In this document: piece by piece, positions 1 to 4,546 of the stretch | Position numbering within the stretch: position 1 is the first letter of the stretch | Layout: every line of letters begins with the position of its first letter | Virus record (IMG/VR): IMGVR_UViG_2684622582_000010 | Span: 1 to 4,546 of that record | From: a virus | Lineage: Duplodnaviria; Heunggongvirae; Uroviricota; Caudoviricetes | DNA length: 4,546 nucleotides | Reading direction: 5' to 3' (one strand) | Program-made: the position numbers and the translations under genes | The notes under the pieces: generated by a model | Databases searched by the model: none | What the model was told of the DNA's origin: nothing | Seen by the model: only the letters and a program-made list of their open reading frames with translations

Positions 1-1074
1 TCATTTGTCGATTTCAATTTTGTCCCATTCCCGTCCACGGCTGTCCCTATACCGCGCCGCCATTGAATCTGATTTATGCCCGAGAAGACGTTGAGCAAAC
101 TTATCGCCAATCTGGTTCCGGTATAGCCTCGCTGACAGGCTACGCAGTTCATGGAATGTTGGCGGGTTTCCATCAAATGAGAGGCCAGATGCATTTCTCG
201 CCTTTGTAAAATACTTTGATACTGTTTTCGGGGAAAGCGGCTCGTGATGCTTTGATGCGATTATAGTTTCACTGCTGCTGGCCTCCCTGCATTTCTGTAG
301 TGTATCAGCCAATGAGATATTGAGCGCGTCAATCGTTAGCGTTAGCGGAATGGCGAGTTTAGCCCCTGTTTTACTCTGTTTAATGTGAAGATGGTTGTCG
401 TTTATGTCTGACCATTTCATTCTGCACAAATCGCCGACTCTCTGCCCTGTAACGACGGCCAAATCCATCGCCAGCCTTAGCCAGATAGGGAGAGGTTCGG
501 CTGCATGGTAAATCTCGACATACTCATTAGCTGTCAGCCTTGAGCGCCTTACTTCTGACTTTGCTGTACGGGTTGCTGTTACCGGATTCGTTGCCACATG
601 CCCCTCGGCTATTGCTTCACGAAAAACGTCAACAAGGGTTGACCTGATTAATTTTGCGGAAGCTGCTTTACCTTCTGCTACGTAGGTGTTTAGCATTGCT
701 GCCACTTCTTTCGTTGATATGTCAGTGAGCGGTTTGTCCGGCAATTTTCTTCGGATTGCCCTGATTTTGCTGGCGTAGTCGAGTAGAGTTTTCGGCCTGA
801 TCCCCCTTTCGGTGAGGATTGTTTCATATCGGTCAAGCCACACATGAAGAGTGATTGCGTCACCGCCTTTAATTCTGTCTATTAGTGATTTGCGTCCGCT
901 GTCTGAGAGTAACTCAATATTGGCCTGTATTGCTTCAGTAATTGCTATCCTCCTGTCTCTGCCTAATCCGAACTCTTTACCCGTCCTTGGGTCCCTGTAG
1001 CAGTAATATCCATTGTTTCTTATATAAAGGTTAGGGGGTAAATCCCGGCGCTCATGACTTCGCCTTCTTCCCAT
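1..1074 (-). CDS. int: Site-specific tyrosine recombinase, phage lambda Int-family integrase (complete, 357 aa)
   Basis: Complete minus-strand ORF with ATG at 1074-1072 and stop at 3-1. N-terminus MGRRRSHERRDLPPNLYIRNNGYYCYRDPRTGKEFGLG... matches lambda Int as I recall it. C-terminal catalytic region is present (FHELRSL with His/Arg, LLGHKSD...AARY with the tyrosine nucleophile). Start overlaps xis by 23 nt, as in lambda. Confidence 0.95.
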   Translation of the reverse strand: MGRRRSHERRDLPPNLYIRNNGYYCYRDPRTGKEFGLGRDRRIAITEAIQANIELLSDSGRKSLIDRIKGGDAITLHVWLDRYETILTERGIRPKTLLDYASKIRAIRRKLPDKPLTDISTKEVAAMLNTYVAEGKAASAKLIRSTLVDVFREAIAEGHVATNPVTATRTAKSEVRRSRLTANEYVEIYHAAEPLPIWLRLAMDLAVVTGQRVGDLCRMKWSDINDNHLHIKQSKTGAKLAIPLTLTIDALNISLADTLQKCREASSSETIIASKHHEPLSPKTVSKYFTKARNASGLSFDGNPPTFHELRSLSARLYRNQIGDKFAQRLLGHKSDSMAARYRDSRGREWDKIEIDK

Positions 1075-1270
1075 TTCTGATCCTCTTCAAAAGGCTACCT
1101 GTTACTGGTCGATTTAAGTCAACCTTTACCGCTGATTCGTGGAACAGATACTCTCTTCCATCCTTAACCGGAGGAGGGAATATCCTGCATTCGCGCACCC
1201 ATCGACGAACTGTTTCAAGACTTCTTGGACGTCGCTGGCGAGCGTTCCACTCCTGAAGTGTCAAGTACAT
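1052..1270 (-). CDS. xis: Excisionase Xis (72 aa), lambda Xis-like
   Basis: ORF MYLTLQEWNARQRRPRSLETVRRWVRECRIFPPPVKDGREYLFHESAVKVDLNRPVTG...KRIRNGKKAKS is near-identical to lambda Xis as recalled. GGAG lies 8 nt upstream of the ATG. The 3' end overlaps the int start, the canonical lambda arrangement. Confidence 0.93.
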   Translation of the reverse strand: MYLTLQEWNARQRRPRSLETVRRWVRECRIFPPPVKDGREYLFHESAVKVDLNRPVTGSLLKRIRNGKKAKS

Positions 1271-1282
1271 CGCAAAGTCTCC

Positions 1283-1296
1283 GCAATTACACGCAA
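1283..1296 (-). promoter_or_regulatory. CII-box-like direct repeat TTGC-N6-TTGC (pI-like, CII-activated int promoter element)
   Basis: Minus-strand sequence TTGCGTGTAATTGC (reverse complement of plus 1283-1296) lies 13-26 nt upstream of the xis ATG. TTGC-N6-TTGC is the established lambda CII recognition motif at pRE, pI and paQ. Its position would place a transcript start just inside xis, as for lambda pI. No good -10 hexamer is visible, which is typical of activator-dependent promoters. Confidence 0.5.
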
Positions 1297-1317
1297 GAAA
1301 AAACCGCCATCAGGCGG
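1295..1317 (-). terminator. Intrinsic-terminator-like hairpin (minus strand) between the zinc-ribbon gene and xis
   Basis: GC stem CCGCC (1304-1308) / GGCGG (1313-1317) with a 4-nt loop. On the minus-strand transcript it is followed immediately by UUUUUUCUU (reverse complement of plus 1295-1303). On the plus strand the stem is preceded, not followed, by the A/T run, so the signal is minus-strand specific. Confidence 0.4.
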
Positions 1318-1360
1318 CTTGGTGTTCTTTCAGTTATTCAATTCGAATATTGGTTACGTC

Positions 1361-1672
1361 TTATTCGATGCGCACTCCTGGTATTTCGCCTTTTGATATT
1401 GCTAAGTCATAAATTTGCGCAGCACTATACCCATCTCGCATCCATGAATCTAAGGCGCTAACAGCCTCGATACGCTTTTTATCTTCTCTCTCATTTTTGA
1501 TATCAACGAGGACATCAACGCAATTAAGGCATATGTGGATTTTGTCCTTACATTCGATCATGGCGGCTTTACCATGATTTCCGCCACACAGTGAGCATAA
1601 ATCTTCAGGGTCTGGCTGGTATTTCTGTAACGTTAAAGGGTTGAATGTTGAACAGGCCATAATCATCTCCAT
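1361..1672 (-). CDS. Small Cys4 zinc-ribbon protein, positional equivalent of lambda Ea8.5 (99-103 aa, start uncertain)
   Basis: ORF with CxxC-(11)-C-(6)-CxxC (CSLCGG...C...CLNC). It sits where lambda carries ea8.5, which is reported to have a homeodomain/zinc-finger fold. Three in-frame ATGs at 1672, 1666 and 1660; only the ATG at 1660 has an SD-like GGAG 6 nt upstream. The ATG at 1672 sits in the U-tract of the upstream terminator hairpin. Confidence 0.6.
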   Translation of the reverse strand: MEMIMACSTFNPLTLQKYQPDPEDLCSLCGGNHGKAAMIECKDKIHICLNCVDVLVDIKNEREDKKRIEAVSALDSWMRDGYSAAQIYDLAISKGEIPGVRIE

Positions 1673-1697
1673 AAAACAAAACTCGCCGTAGCGAGTT
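1671..1697 (-). terminator. Intrinsic-terminator-like hairpin B (minus strand)
   Basis: Perfect 7-bp inverted repeat AACTCGC (1680-1686) / GCGAGTT (1691-1697) with loop CGTA. On the minus-strand RNA it is followed by UUGUUUUAU (reverse complement of 1671-1679). Confidence 0.45.
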
Positions 1698-1700
1698 CAG

Positions 1701-1727
1701 ATAAAAGAAATCCCCGCGAGTGCGAGG
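1701..1727 (-). terminator. Intrinsic-terminator-like hairpin A (minus strand), directly after the ASCH gene stop
   Basis: On the minus-strand RNA: stem CCUCGC / GCGGGG (plus 1712-1717 and 1722-1727) with one G.U wobble that pairs only in the minus-strand transcript, loop ACUC, then AUUUCUUUUAU (reverse complement of 1701-1711). It lies 5 nt after the stop of the 1732-2016 gene and forms a tandem pair with hairpin B. Confidence 0.4.
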
Positions 1728-1731
1728 ATTG

Positions 1732-2016
1732 TTATTCATTGTCGATATTTACCTTTATCGCGAACACCTTTACCGGTTTATCGCCGAAGTGCGGGTGTGT
1801 GATTATCTTAATTTCATAGCCGTCATACGGAACATCAATTCTGCGGCTGGAATCGTCGCGCTTCGGATATCCCTTTGTGATAATCAGGCGGTCATGCTTA
1901 CGGTTAACGAGGCGCTTTTTCCAGTAGTCATTACACAGGCGATACTCTTCCGTTTTCTCGCCTGACTTCATCTGGTCGAAATATTCACCTTTGACGGCAA
2001 GTTGCAGGTTAGCCAC
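1732..2016 (-). CDS. ASCH / PUA-like domain protein (94 aa)
   Basis: GTG start at 2016-2014 with strong SD AGGAGG 6 nt upstream. N-terminal motif SGEKTEEYR fits the ASCH signature GxKxxExR. Size and the beta-rich C-terminus fit ASCH/DUF3850-type PUA-like proteins common in phages. Start overlaps the upstream gene by 8 nt. Confidence 0.75.
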   Translation of the reverse strand: MANLQLAVKGEYFDQMKSGEKTEEYRLCNDYWKKRLVNRKHDRLIITKGYPKRDDSSRRIDVPYDGYEIKIITHPHFGDKPVKVFAIKVNIDNE

Positions 2017-2293
2017 GACCTTCCTCCTTTGGCTTGTGAATTTGTATCGTCATGCCGCTTTGAGTGGTGACTACAATGACAGAACCAGGCTGAAGGCTGT
2101 TAAGATTGAATGCTTCGTAAAACGAATCCAGGGCCAGCGCTTTTTTATTCTTTCGGTTCCACCAACGCCATCCCTTGCTACAGGCTATACTGACAATCCA
2201 CTGTCCACTCCTGTAAGCCATATAAAACCAGATGAGCAAAACCTGAAGGAATGCTATCCAGTCAATAATCGTATATTTCGCGAAGGAGTCCAT
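2009..2293 (-). CDS. Small membrane protein (94 aa), one N-terminal transmembrane helix, unknown function
   Basis: ATG at 2293-2291 is preceded by AGGAGG with 8-nt spacing and overlaps the upstream stop (TGATG). N-terminal hydrophobic segment YTIIDWIAFLQVLLIWFYMAY is followed by a basic stretch (RWWNRKNKK). The longer track ORF 2009-2347 adds 18 residues without an RBS, so the internal start is preferred. Confidence 0.7.
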   Translation of the reverse strand: MDSFAKYTIIDWIAFLQVLLIWFYMAYRSGQWIVSIACSKGWRWWNRKNKKALALDSFYEAFNLNSLQPGSVIVVTTQSGMTIQIHKPKEEGRG

Positions 2294-2832
2294 CACTTCA
2301 CCTCCTGCGGCGGTTCTGGTAGTGGCATCCAATTGATTACATCGCATTCAGGGATGCTGATATCATCACCAAGCCACCCTTGACCTTCAGACCAGCATTG
2401 CGCGTAATACCCGTATTCTGTGTTCACTACGCACCACTGCGCGTCGTTCGGCATTCGCTCACTACAGCTTATCCAACCATCCGGAGTTACCGGATAGTTG
2501 TCATTCACAAGGTCAGCTCGAACATATAGCGTGTCATCATGGTGCTGATTGTGGCTGCACCACGTTAATTCGCTTAACTCGCCATCTTCTGGCCATACTC
2601 CAGCCGTTTGCAGCCAGATATGGACTGGCGCATCTTGGCAAGGTGTATTAACTGGCAACTTGTAAGTTTGGCTTACAGGTTCTGCACTATCAGCTTCGCG
2701 CCGCTTCTGTAGCTCTGCTGCCATCGCTCTCACGACTTCAACTGGTGCCCTTGCAGCAAACTCCATGTTGGTGATCAGCTCATTAAGATATTGCTCGCTG
2801 GGATACTGTTTCTTATCGGTTATAGTGGTCAT
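2293..2832 (-). CDS. Phage protein with C-terminal DUF551-like domain (179 aa)
   Basis: ATG at 2832-2830 with SD AAGGAG 6 nt upstream, one nucleotide after the upstream stop (TGA-G-ATG). C-terminal ...DGWISCSERMPNDAQWCVV...INWMPLPEPP resembles the DUF551 family as I recall it (conserved Trp residues and a terminal WMPLPEPP). The track's N-terminal extension to 2874 lacks an RBS and lies inside the upstream gene. Confidence 0.72.
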   Translation of the reverse strand: MTTITDKKQYPSEQYLNELITNMEFAARAPVEVVRAMAAELQKRREADSAEPVSQTYKLPVNTPCQDAPVHIWLQTAGVWPEDGELSELTWCSHNQHHDDTLYVRADLVNDNYPVTPDGWISCSERMPNDAQWCVVNTEYGYYAQCWSEGQGWLGDDISIPECDVINWMPLPEPPQEVK

Positions 2833-2833
2833 C

Positions 2834-3409
2834 TCACTCTCCTTTGATGCGAATGCCAGCGGCGCGGGAATCATTCCATCGCTTTACTTCTTCACGAATT
2901 ACGTCAATGCATTCTTTCGAATCCATTAGGTAATCTTCATCAAAAAGACGTTCCTGTTCGTTTTCTATCGCAACAATGATTGCTTCAACTAACTTTTGTG
3001 CCTGAGAATCACTTTCTAACTCTGCTATGCGCTTACTCCCATCCGAGATAACACCTTCGTAATATTCACGCTGTTCGTTGAGTTTTGATTTTGTCTCTTC
3101 AAGCTCAGCAACCAGTTTTCGAAGCCCTTCAATCTCACCATTGCGAGCAATGAGGTCGCGGCACATGCTTTCGTTCTCATCCAGTAGTGCCTGCACTACT
3201 TCTGGGTTGAAAGCTGCGATATAACGAGCGTTGTTCTCTGCGTTTTTCTGTCCATCAAAGCCGGTCCATTTGATAACGTCTTCACATCGTTTATCACCGG
3301 GCGTATGCACCGCATACGTACCAGTACCCGGCGAAATAAATGCGACCCATTCGCCTTGTGTTGCCTGTTTTGCTATCTCACGCAGTGCCTGATAGTTAAT
3401 CTCGCTCAC
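2834..3409 (-). CDS. Ea22/Ead-like protein with central coiled coil (191 aa)
   Basis: GTG start at 3409-3407 overlapping the upstream stop (GTGA), with GAGAGG upstream. N-terminus MSEINYQALREIAKQATQGEW resembles the conserved N-terminus of lambdoid Ea22-family proteins as recalled. Residues ~90-150 are Leu/Glu/Lys-rich with heptad character (IEGLRKLVAELEETKSKLNEQ...). It occupies the ea22 position of a lambda-like early-left operon. Confidence 0.7.
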   Translation of the reverse strand: MSEINYQALREIAKQATQGEWVAFISPGTGTYAVHTPGDKRCEDVIKWTGFDGQKNAENNARYIAAFNPEVVQALLDENESMCRDLIARNGEIEGLRKLVAELEETKSKLNEQREYYEGVISDGSKRIAELESDSQAQKLVEAIIVAIENEQERLFDEDYLMDSKECIDVIREEVKRWNDSRAAGIRIKGE

Positions 3410-3627
3410 TTCGAACCTCTCTGTTTACTGATAAGCTCCAGATCCTCTTGGCAACTTGCACAAGTCCGACAACCCTGAACGACCAGGCGTCTTCGTTCAT
3501 CTATGGGATCGCCACACTCACAACAATGAGTGGCGGATATAGTCTGGTAGTTCAGACGACGCATTTTTATTGCTGTGTTGCGCTGTAATTCTTCAATTTC
3601 TGATGCTGAATCAATGATGTCTGCCAT
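3406..3627 (-). CDS. TraR/DksA-family C4-type zinc-finger protein (73 aa)
   Basis: CxxC-(17)-CxxC in ...THCCECGDPIDERRRLVVQGCRTCASCQE..., matching the TraR/DksA C4 zinc-finger pattern (compare F-plasmid TraR C.ACGNPIPE.RR...C..CQ). Size is typical of phage TraR-like proteins. Confidence 0.82.
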   Translation of the reverse strand: MADIIDSASEIEELQRNTAIKMRRLNYQTISATHCCECGDPIDERRRLVVQGCRTCASCQEDLELISKQRGSK

Positions 3628-3682
3628 CTTTCATTAATCCCTGAATTGTTGGTTAATACGCTTGAGGGTGAATGCGAATAAT

Positions 3683-3703
3683 AAAAAAGGAGCCTGTAGC
3701 TCC
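3683..3703 (-). terminator. Intrinsic-terminator-like hairpin (minus strand) between the hypothetical ORF and the TraR-like gene
   Basis: Stem GGAGC (3689-3693) / GCTCC (3699-3703) with a 5-nt loop. On the minus-strand RNA it is followed by UUUUUU (reverse complement of 3683-3688) and then AUUAUU. It lies 23 nt after the stop at 3726. The stem is short, so this is a weaker call. Confidence 0.35.
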
Positions 3704-3725
3704 ATGATGATTTTGTTTTTCATGC

Positions 3726-4007
3726 TCACCGTTCCTTAAAGACGCCGTTTAACATGCCGATCGCCTGGCTTAAATGAGTCGGTGTGAATCCCATCAGCGT
3801 TACCGTTTCGCGGTGCTTCTTCAGTACGCTACGGCAAATGTCATCGACGTTTTTATCCGGAAACTGCTGTCTGGCTTTTTTGATTTCAGAATTAGCCTGA
3901 CGGGCAATGCTGCGAAGGGCGTTTTCCTGCTGAGGTGTCACTGAACAAGCCCCATGTCGGCAAGCATAAGCACACAGAATATGAAGCCCGCAGCCAGAAA
4001 AATGCAT
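3726..4007 (-). CDS. Hypothetical protein, start uncertain (93 aa from ATG 4007, or 71 aa from GTG 3941)
   Basis: Open frame ending at TGA 3728-3726. The ATG at 4007 directly follows an in-frame TGA and has no SD. The in-frame GTG at 3941-3939 has GGGG 8 nt upstream and overlaps the stop of the 27-aa ORF (GTGA). The Cys/His-rich N-terminal 22 residues look like a frame artefact. No family recognised. Confidence 0.5.
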   Translation of the reverse strand: MHFSGCGLHILCAYACRHGACSVTPQQENALRSIARQANSEIKKARQQFPDKNVDDICRSVLKKHRETVTLMGFTPTHLSQAIGMLNGVFKER

Positions 4008-4021
4008 TCAGTGGTTGTCAT
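3938..4021 (-). CDS. Candidate small hydrophobic peptide (27 aa), not in the ORF track
   Basis: ATG at 4021-4019 overlaps the orf63-like stop (ATGA); stop TGA at 3940-3938 overlaps the downstream GTG (GTGA). My hand translation is MTTTECIFLAAGFIFCVLMLADMGLVQ, a single transmembrane-helix-like peptide. No SD of its own; it would depend on translational coupling. Confidence 0.3.
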   Translation of the reverse strand: MTTTECIFLAAGFIFCVLMLADMGLVQ

Positions 4022-4209
4022 ACCTGGTCTCTCTCATCTGCTTCTGCTTTCGCCACCATCATTTCCAGTTTTTGTGAAAGGGATGTGGCTAACGTATGAA
4101 ATTCTTCGTCTGTTTCTACTGGTATTGGCACAAACCTGACTCCAATTTGAGCAAGGCTATGTGCCATCTCAATGCTCGTTCTTAACTCAACAGGAGATGC
4201 TTTGTGCAT
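4018..4209 (-). CDS. Small protein equivalent to lambda orf63 (63 aa), unknown function
   Basis: ATG at 4209-4207 with GAGGGG upstream. Length (63 aa), position (second gene downstream of exo) and the 28-nt overlap with the preceding 60-aa gene match lambda orf63 as I recall it. Sequence identity is not verified. Confidence 0.65.
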   Translation of the reverse strand: MHKASPVELRTSIEMAHSLAQIGVRFVPIPVETDEEFHTLATSLSQKLEMMVAKAEADERDQV

Positions 4210-4364
4210 ACAGCCCCTCGTTTATTATTTATCTCCTCAGCCAGCCGCTGTGCTTTCAGTGGATTTTGGATAACAGAAAGGCCGGGAAATACCCAGCCTC
4301 GCTTTGTAACGGAGTAGACGAAAGTGATCGCACCTACCCGGATATTATCGTGAGGATGCTTCAT
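4182..4364 (-). CDS. Small protein equivalent to lambda orf60a (60 aa), unknown function
   Basis: ATG at 4364-4362 overlaps the exo stop (ATGA) and has GGGGAG 8 nt upstream. The track's ATG at 4370 gives 62 aa but has only a 2-nt spacer. Length and position immediately downstream of exo match lambda orf60a as recalled. Confidence 0.65.
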
Positions 4365-4546
4365 CGCCATTGCTCCCCAAATACAAAACCAATTTCAGCC
4401 AGTGCCTCGTCCATTTTTTCGATGAACTCCGGCACCATCTCGTCAAAACCCGCCATGTACTTTTCATCCCGCTCAACCACGACATAATGCAGGCCTTCAC
4501 GCTTCATACGCGGGTCATAGTTGGCAAAGTACCAGGCATCTTTTCG
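4361..4546 (-). CDS. exo: Lambda-type exonuclease (Red-alpha, Exo), C-terminal 61 codons; gene continues beyond the window edge
   Basis: Not in the track because it has no start in the window. My translation of the minus strand from 4546 to 4364 is [61 protein letters not shown], then TGA at 4363-4361. This matches the C-terminus of lambda Exo (...[21 protein letters not shown]) as I recall it. Confidence 0.88.

Follow-up and report, generated by a model that had tools for sequence, protein, structure and literature searches.

Two consecutive hairpins, H1 and H2, in the minus-strand transcript of a lambdoid prophage segment are likely to be tandem Rho-independent terminators of the distal early-left operon, which antiterminated polymerase reads through, and the short module that contains them also forms a mosaic junction. 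They lie in a 4,546-nt stretch of Caudoviricetes DNA (IMG/VR record IMGVR_UViG_2684622582_000010, positions 1 to 4,546), which we analysed as a whole and call the window. Signals of this kind are ordinary, and the element itself is essentially already known, in the form of predicted terminators in phage lambda. What is new is the comparative picture of a widely shared and structurally maintained terminator/ribosome-binding-site junction between interchangeable accessory genes.

Results

All convincing genes of the window are on the minus strand (Table 1); besides those tabulated, they encode DUF4752, DUF551, Ead/Ea22, DksA/TraR zinc-finger and DUF1382 proteins. The window matches lambdoid and Shiga-toxin phages by megablast, with about 59% of its length alignable to lambda 27.8-31.5 kb, and this identifies it as the int-xis-'ea' (exo-xis) end of a lambdoid prophage early-left operon. 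The sequence TTGC-N6-TTGC at 1296-1283 reads as a lambda cII-type pI box. Together with the Ea22-like, DksA/TraR, DUF1382 and Exc proteins, it bears out the lambda-type early-left setting that the first-pass annotation had assumed. The first-pass annotation proposed that genes below 1671 would depend on antiterminated transcripts or on a pI-like promoter; the start of a pI-type transcript would fall inside xis, and the zinc-ribbon gene would not be covered by it. No N gene or nut site was found in the window, which stops short of exo/bet/N, and a simple scan of the window returned no minus-strand promoters. In lambda, 6.2 kb separate pL/nutL from the homologous segment further downstream in one leftward unit, and the relatives P22 and Sf6 have the same layout as the lambda early-left unit. 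In annotated relatives, the genes flanking the hairpins are all codirectional with them, except in phage 434, whose annotation puts the neighbouring genes on the other strand.

The hairpins follow a gene for a 94-aa protein that had been called an ASCH gene. This name is carried by RefSeq homologues of the protein, but an ASCH domain was not recovered with Pfam or NCBIfam at E <= 0.01, and PHROGs places the protein in phrog_625, a family of unknown function.

Table 1 Features of the window discussed in the text, with terminator discriminants where computed.
Feature	Position	Strand	Description	Discriminant, minus strand	Discriminant, plus strand
Lambda-type integrase	1..1074	-	ORF and domain search
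Excisionase	1052..1270	-	Pfam Exc, E = 4e-41
t5-type hairpin, in front of xis	1301..1320	-	exact match to lambda 29,109-29,128; directly upstream of pI box and xis	+20 to +41
Zinc-ribbon protein, 99-103 aa	1361..1672	-	ORF
Candidate zinc-ribbon start ATG	1660-1658	-	6 nt after GGAG
Conserved 70-nt module	1666..1735	-	stop codon, H1, U tract, H2, U tract, Shine-Dalgarno
Shine-Dalgarno GGAG	1670-1667	-	3' edge of module
H2 U-rich tract	1678-1671	-	UGUUUUAU; 6-7 U in first 8 nt
H2	1698-1679	-	GAACTCGC-TACG-GCGAGTTT; 8 pairs, 4 G-C; tail TGTTTTATGG; consensus scan	+7 to +29	-43
H1 U-rich tract, also inter-hairpin spacer	1708-1699	-	UCUUUUAUCU; 6 U in first 8 nt
H1	1730-1709	-	AATCCTCGC-ACTC-GCGGGGATT; 9 pairs, 5 G-C; tail TCTTTTATCT; consensus scan	+8.5	-26
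Stop codon TAA of 94-aa gene	1732..1734	-	1 nt before H1 stem
94-aa protein	1732..2016	-	ORF; ASCH in RefSeq homologues; stop TAA 1734-1732
tL3-like hairpin	4300-4278		matches lambda 31,265-31,287	+6.3

H1 has the loop ACUC, a stem that includes the wobble pair U1725.G1714 and a folding energy of -12.5 kcal/mol. H2 is closed by a UACG tetraloop of the UNCG type, has an outer wobble G1698.U1679 and folds at -11.4 kcal/mol. When the minus-sense RNA 1745-1650 is folded, H1 and H2 are precisely the hairpins that form (MFE -27.3 kcal/mol, z = -2.71), and only 1 of 200 shuffles folded as well. In the plus sense, the same segment reaches -19.7 kcal/mol (z = -1.68) and contains a mismatch inside H1. 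The consensus scan and the fold thus agree on the two minus-strand hairpins, each followed by a U-rich tract, that the first-pass annotation had described. The G.U pair that it had placed in the minus-sense RNA only is U1725.G1714, an A-C mismatch on the plus strand, and the 59-nt gap that it gave between the ASCH stop and the zinc-ribbon gene is correct when counted to the first ATG (1673-1731).

Both stems are G+C-rich and fall within the range of intrinsic terminators (about 5-14 bp, loop of 3-8 nt), and the U tracts give tail scores of 3.8-5.2 with discriminants d above 0. A discriminant in the style of d'Aubenton-Carafa, computed with current energy parameters, gives both hairpins positive values on the minus strand, comparable to that of the tL3-like hairpin of the same window, and strongly negative ones on the plus strand. 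The plus-strand tails are A-rich. Both hairpins thus show strand-specific structure in sense orientation downstream of a coding region. Over the window, the consensus scan found 12 terminator-like sites, as against 4.8 +/- 2.1 in shuffles. Termination efficiency could be low, as a single C or G breaks each U tract (UUUCUUUU, UUUUGUUUU) and stem stability is modest, at -11 to -13 kcal/mol.

Ninety-one bases around the hairpins match more than 300 phage records at 90-100% identity, often as an isolated block of about 70 nt. In lambda the block is about 97% identical to 29,288-29,361, between ea8.5 and lambdap35, and H1 matches 29,335-29,356 exactly. The lambda exo-xis region has been analysed with ARNold, using the two predictors Erpin and RNAmotif (Bloch et al. 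2014, PMC4195576, PLoS One 9:e108233, Table 4). The predicted terminators of that study include t3, TTACATAACAATCCTCGCA CT CGCGGGGATTTATTTTATCTG, and t4, TTTTATCTGAACTCGC TACG GCGGGTTTTGTTTTATG, and the hairpin in front of xis is its predicted t5. By sequence, H1 and H2 are the homologues of predicted t3 and t4, and represent the same element. Lambda t3 and t4 also have the same orientation and lie, like the module, upstream of the t5 hairpin, pI and xis. The flanking genes differ, being the ASCH-annotated and zinc-ribbon genes here and ea8.5 and lambdap35 in lambda. Within the module, H2 has a U-A pair here where lambda has U.G, and the spacer has C here and A in lambda. The lambda t3 and t4 are in silico predictions; in the literature on lambda and its relatives we found in silico prediction only, and no experimental 3' ends, readthrough, N-dependence or named terminator at this site. 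Term-seq data exist for E. coli O157 Sakai (Sy et al. 2020; GEO accession GSE143631), some of whose prophages carry the module, among them VT2-Sakai near position 2,056-2,146 of its record. In the HK140 record, the site equivalent to the t5-type hairpin is annotated as a rho-independent terminator, and this hairpin belongs to the same terminator set in front of xis-int as H1 and H2.

The module is distinct from lambda tL3. It maps to lambda 29.29-29.36 kb, and the tL3-like hairpin at 4300-4278 is a separate site. Lambda tL3 lies within orf60a just beyond exo, at ~31.2-31.3 kb, and in the 31,088-33,241 segment used in recombineering plasmids; the identity was rejected because of the latter placement. 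The tL3 terminator and the tL2 cluster are experimentally characterised Rho-independent terminators in the pL operon that are overridden by N-modified polymerase. H1 and H2 share with them the kind of signal, the operon and the expected relation to antitermination, and the tL2 cluster, like the tandem pair, is a run of several sites. They differ from tL3 and tL2 in sequence and lie ~2-4 kb further from pL.

Copies of the module were collected from IMG/VR with a spacer-anchored pattern, which by itself accounts for part of the conservation of the first U tract. A covariance model derived from related copies scores 104.7 bits at 1666-1735 (E ~1e-27). Across 83 distinct copies, column conservation is 0.3-0.5 upstream and exceeds 0.9 from the TAA before H1 through GGAGA, as expected of a conserved block between non-homologous flanks. 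Conservation is at background 5' of ~1735, and 3' of GGAGA it tracks whichever gene follows. At the upstream edge, the TAA serves in related phages as the stop codon of several unrelated ORFs or of a mini-ORF scar. At the downstream edge, GGAG is common to six downstream gene types, whose sequences diverge right after it and each of which has its own ATG 5-9 nt further on.

This arrangement bears on the start of the zinc-ribbon gene. The U tract of H2 contains the AU (1672-1671) of the first ATG (1672-1670), which is the start used in database records of zinc-ribbon homologues. In lambda, the module-internal ATG is out of frame with the annotated lambdap35. From its Shine-Dalgarno spacing, and by comparison with the other downstream genes, the zinc-ribbon gene most likely starts at the ATG at 1660-1658 and not at 1672. 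The overlap between the second U tract and a downstream ATG, pointed out in the first-pass annotation, is therefore real, but that ATG is probably not the start codon.

In close copies alone, 95.8% of stem cells are paired, two-sided changes are absent and the values equal those of shuffles; there is too little variation among these copies for covariation to be informative. It became informative only when diverged forms were added by means of a second spacer pattern and the covariance model. Once 60 distinct copies were aligned under the model, 96.0% of stem cells were paired and six pairs (31 cells) had changed on both sides, counts that overstate the independent evidence, as the alignment is fitted to the structure and the independent events are few. 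None of 500 shuffles reached the observed pairing or covariation values, and slid controls gave at most 3 pairs and 7 cells. The stems thus show compensatory change of the kind expected of a terminator. G.U pairs make up 140 of 976 cells (~14%) in this alignment. They would be A-C mismatches in plus-sense RNA, which supports function in the minus-sense RNA. The discriminants, the kept stems and the G.U pairs uphold the tandem intrinsic-terminator anatomy in the coding sense that had been proposed.

The same observations weigh on a plus-strand or DNA-level element, such as a rightward terminator, a protein-binding palindrome or a cruciform. Every hairpin corresponds to a palindrome in the DNA, and the opposite-strand annotation of the phage 434 neighbours could be read in this direction. 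We consider such an element scarcely credible in view of the negative plus-strand discriminants with their A-rich tails, a plus-sense fold that is indistinguishable from shuffles and the one stem cell in seven or so that is mismatched in plus-sense RNA.

Variation is unevenly distributed between the hairpins. In H2, pair 4/15 is split near 50:50 between U-A (21 distinct variants) and U.G (17), with C-G also seen across copies; the hairpin is otherwise nearly invariant. In H1, pair 6/17 is U.G, U-A or C-G, and the hairpin as a whole occurs in at least five sequence forms, all with folding energies of -7 to -15 kcal/mol and with the stem running right up to the U tract. They include AAUCCUCGC[ACUC]GCGGGGAUU, AUCCCCGC[CCUC]GCGGGGAU, GAACCCGC[CGAGU]GCGGGUUU, AAACCUCG[CACAGU]CGAGGUUU and AUCCUCG[CACUGA]CGAGGAU, with CCGC[UUAAU]GCGG as a weaker form. 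H1 is absent altogether from some copies (L044, L161, L186 and L206). The tandem pair of Gifsy-2 has diverged, with C-G at H2 pair 4/15 and a UGCG loop. It is flanked by a gene and by the LexA-box promoter region of dinI, a setting suited to a terminator and unsuited to a ribosome-binding site.

Compared with the third codon positions of the adjacent lambdap35-type gene, diversity in H2, its loop and its tail is lower by a factor of 4-6 (pi ~0.01-0.016 versus 0.065). A run of at least four U after H2 is kept in most alternative downstream junction types, including those of Gifsy-2, L150 and L254. In the GER2 junction type, H2 is kept and the U tract is absent, with divergence right after the H2 stem.

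The U runs are relevant to the idea that the hairpins act on finished mRNA, as intercistronic barriers to 3'-to-5' exonucleases or as processing sites, and so give the parts of the antiterminated polycistronic transcript before and after them different stabilities. Stable GC-rich hairpins at a cistron boundary, one of them with a UNCG-type loop, would suit such a role, and transcripts that read through would fold into them as well; unequal mRNA levels have also been reported across the exo-xis region (Bloch et al. 2014, PMC4195576). A stabiliser does not need U tracts, yet they are present in most junction types. The architecture passes two independent terminator predictors in lambda, and it lacks an extended duplex of the RNase III type. 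We therefore hold a role in mRNA stability to be improbable.

The stop codon 1 nt from H1 raises the further possibility of a translation-sensed attenuator. A ribosome at the stop would block H1, the 3' arm of H1 (GCGGG), which is complementary to the 5' arm of H2 (CUCGC), would pair with it, and readthrough would occur only when the upstream gene is translated. A faint Rfam match to the Leu leader could be taken to point the same way. The complementarity of the arms follows from the CGC/GCG core of both hairpins, and mutually exclusive structures of comparable stability were not found: the alternative pairing is worth -5.6 kcal/mol against -11.4 kcal/mol for H2, and in constrained folding the MFE structure keeps H2 when the 5' arm of H1 is blocked. 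In lambda, the real upstream stop codon is 17 nt further away. Rfam 15, searched over the whole window at a permissive threshold, returned no family match at gathering score; the only hit, Leu_leader, reached 20.8 bits where 50 is the gathering score (E = 0.61), and did so on the plus strand, which is the wrong one. An attenuator of this type is very improbable.

Among 99 copies with enough flanking sequence, we distinguished 23 upstream and 7 downstream sequence clusters, which occur in 37 combinations. Two polymorphisms within the module, 24 nt apart, are found in all four combinations (C-A 17, C-G 13, A-G 9 and A-A 5). Cassettes are frequently inserted or replaced at the U tract of H1, the spacer between the hairpins. 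In Stx2a_F451 and Lyz12581Vzw, H1 and its U tract lead directly into the ribosome-binding site of an antirepressor gene. In contig L049 and three similar contigs, an inserted gene separates H1 from H2 exactly; it encodes a 266-aa DpdA/queuine-transferase-like protein of a phrog_887 'moron' family. The insert comes with a hairpin of its own, in whose loop the stop codon lies, and has the repeat GGATTTCTTTTAT on either side. As in Stx2a_F451 and Lyz12581Vzw, H1 and its U tract are alone in L049 before the Shine-Dalgarno of another gene. One Gifsy-like contig has three hairpin units in tandem.

The module is present in 2,507 of 5,426 complete E. coli genomes (46%), with up to 6 copies per genome. 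In species-representative genomes, a stricter 21-base pattern matched five contigs, so that the element appears taxonomically narrow; three are from Enterobacteriaceae (Escherichia sp., Pseudocitrobacter and Shimwellia) and two are probably misbinned MAG contigs. The ea region of P22 is without the module, which is carried by Sf6, SPN9CC, Kapi1 and other P22-like phages. Neither the wide sharing and earlier prediction of the module nor its place at a mosaic junction had figured in the first-pass annotation.

The pattern across phages gives good support to the module as a linker in cassette exchange, in which recombination would resolve at the module. Being the same between many genes, it offers ~70 bp of homology for such exchange. 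One could go further and see in it a mosaic boundary or linker only, conserved through recombination or recent spread, with the hairpins incidental. The many flank combinations, the reassorted polymorphisms, the cassettes inserted or replaced exactly at the module edges and spacer, and the presence in close to half of complete E. coli genomes would all be explained. A pure homology linker needs no hairpin, yet at least five different H1 sequences fold against the U tract. Stems have changed on both sides, polymorphisms favour G.U and so preserve pairing in one RNA sense, and the diverged Gifsy-2 version keeps the structure with little of the sequence. A linker without terminator function thus seems unlikely to us. 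The two roles are compatible, and the linker role is probably additional to that of a terminator.

Discussion

Polymerase modified at nutL reads through the early-left terminators, and unmodified polymerase stops. By analogy with this established lambda biology, unmodified polymerase reaching the module would pause on a U tract as H1 or H2 forms in the nascent RNA, and would be released. Unmodified polymerase of this kind could have started at weak or constitutive promoters within the accessory genes, or have escaped terminators further upstream. Termination at the module would keep stray transcription out of the zinc-ribbon gene, xis and int, and the module and the t5-type hairpin together would shield xis and int from accessory-gene transcription. 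Polymerase modified at nutL, by N or an equivalent, would read through both hairpins, so that the genes downstream would behave as delayed-early and the gene directly after the module would be strictly dependent on antitermination. Transcripts from pL should, without N, already stop at tL1, and the need for H1 and H2 would thus depend on internal promoters. The interpretation in the first-pass annotation is reasonable, and supported in part.

The tandem arrangement may itself have a rationale. As H1 begins 1 nt after the stop codon, a terminating ribosome should cover its 5' arm. H2, ~30 nt further on and outside the ribosome footprint, would then act as a backup terminator, in keeping with its formation in constrained folding when the H1 5' arm is blocked.

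The conservation of H2, its loop and its tail, well in excess of what a terminator needs, invites a broader proposal, which we offer as possible but doubtful. Standardised junctions of 30-70 nt, made up of stop codon, terminator, U tract and ribosome-binding site and near-identical across phages of E. coli, Shigella and Salmonella, may serve both as homology arms for recombinases and as terminators. Red, RecT and Erf would need arms of about the length of a junction, and genes would be swapped, inserted and deleted precisely at the junctions, each of which would also terminate unmodified polymerase. The conservation would then reflect selection for exchangeability on top of terminator function.

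Two other kinds of lambdoid element resemble the module in part. The boundary sequences (bsq) of HK620 and Sf6, and the linker idea itself, reportedly go back to Clark and co-workers in 2001, Casjens and co-workers in 2004 and Susskind and Botstein in 1978. Like these, the module is short, highly conserved and located at a gene boundary, with unrelated flanks on both sides across phages; what sets it apart is a clear RNA structure in which variation is compensatory. In the Sf6 record, bsq2 and bsq3 are annotated close by but the module is not, and the HK140 record is likewise without an annotated module. Moron-type lambdoid cassettes, in which a gene carries its own terminator, were reportedly described by Juhala and co-workers in 2000. 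Individual accessory genes considered here similarly end in their own hairpin and U tract, and the DpdA-like gene inserted between H1 and H2 is an example. They differ from morons in that the cassettes have no detected promoter, follow the orientation of the operon and share ribosome-binding-site junctions.

If the hairpins terminate as predicted, they would determine what part of the accessory gene content of lambda-like and Shiga-toxin prophages is open to expression in the absence of antitermination. By keeping stray transcription in the lysogen out of xis and int, they would also bear on prophage stability. Terminator function would be a modest refinement of the well-known regulation of lambda. 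In practice, the module marks the exact junctions of exo-xis cassettes in nearly half of complete E. coli genomes, and it helps to trace mosaic exchange and to annotate gene starts, the first ATG being probably non-initiating.

Genes missing or inserted around the tandem hairpins

The ASCH-annotated gene immediately upstream of the module, the conserved junction that carries the tandem terminator-like hairpins H1 and H2, is absent from Lyz12581Vzw, HK140 and Sf6, and comparison of the sequences at the module's 5′ side shows that its absence is exact. In all three, the first 10 codons of the gene (ATG/GTG GCT AAC CTG CAA CTT GCC GTC AAA GG) are joined directly to its last codons (TGAATAA), leaving as a remnant the mini-ORF MANLQLAVKGE*, which terminates at the same TAA before H1 as the full gene. 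The short repeat TGAATA is present at both ends of the ASCH-annotated gene, and the junction falls within it.

A gene is also found inside the module. In four records, H1 is separated from H2 by the precise insertion of a DpdA/queuine tRNA-ribosyltransferase-like gene. The insert is flanked on both sides by the 13-nt repeat GGATTTCTTTTAT, and the gene's stop codon lies within the loop of a small hairpin of its own.

Coordinates of the genes, junctions and hairpins compared
Feature	Record	Position	Strand	Remarks
ASCH-annotated gene	window	1732-2016	minus	set against L130 1500-1600, L005 1240-1340, L003 1250-1350
DpdA/queuine tRNA-ribosyltransferase-like gene	L049; also L062, L080, L245	6409-7306 (L049)		266 aa; phrog_887, E = 1e-102
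Zinc-ribbon gene	window	1361-1672	minus	phrog_3680, function not known
Sequence 5′ of module, phage 434	L004	1201-1279 and 1267-2043		two genes
GER2-type junction	L008, L119	around 1188-1257
Diverged tandem hairpin pair, Salmonella Gifsy-type phages	L131 (Gifsy-2); L218	1490-1556; 4730-4796
cII-type box TTGC-N6-TTGC of pI-like promoter	window	1283-1296	minus	at xis start
Strong terminator-like hairpin (lambda's predicted t5)	window	1301-1320	minus	exact match, lambda 29,109-29,128
Terminator-like hairpin (predicted t2 of Bloch et al. 2014, PMC4195576)	window	3689-3703	minus	identical to lambda 30,675-30,689
Terminator-like hairpin	window	4278-4300	minus	inside orf60a-like gene; identical to lambda 31,265-31,287

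Downstream of the module, the annotated start of the zinc-ribbon gene, its first ATG, is probably wrong, and the ATG at 1660 is a better fit to the shared Shine-Dalgarno sequence. Residues 19–64 of the encoded protein resemble the ClpX N-terminal zinc-binding domain, a weak match that falls far below the cut-off (E = 0.003, NCBIfam).

Variant and additional hairpins

The GER2-type junction retains H2, followed by the post-stem sequence CTTGAGAGG, which lacks a U tract, and then by a different ribosome-binding site; this H2 cannot be a canonical intrinsic terminator. Phage 434 carries a distinct form of H1 with a 6-nt loop and a U–A pair where the wobble stands elsewhere, and both genes 5′ of its module are annotated on the opposite strand as putative membrane proteins.

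The two stems of the diverged Gifsy-type pair are near-identical to one another (GAACCCGC...GCGGGTTTT), which suggests that a single terminator unit was duplicated in tandem to give the pair. Three hairpin units are present in one Gifsy-type contig, and in Gifsy-2 the pair lies immediately upstream of the dinI LexA-box promoter region.

Further terminator-like hairpins occur elsewhere in the window. The t5-type hairpin directly adjoins the cII-type box, the t2 hairpin is located between the orf61-like and DksA/TraR-type genes, and the hairpin within the orf60a-like gene is consistent with tL3.

Doubtful host assignments

A record named Campylobacter phage CJLB-4 (MW057783.1, 48,361 bp) matches the window over the same span and with the same identity as the lambda records. 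Since query span (1–4546), coverage (59%) and identity (86.6%) all equal those of lambda, this record looks like lambda itself. The enterobacterial phage module is also present in two metagenome-assembled genome (MAG) contigs, L252 and L256, whose assigned taxa are Segatella copri and Candidatus Nanosynbacter. Contamination or misbinning probably accounts for the CJLB-4 record and both MAG contigs.
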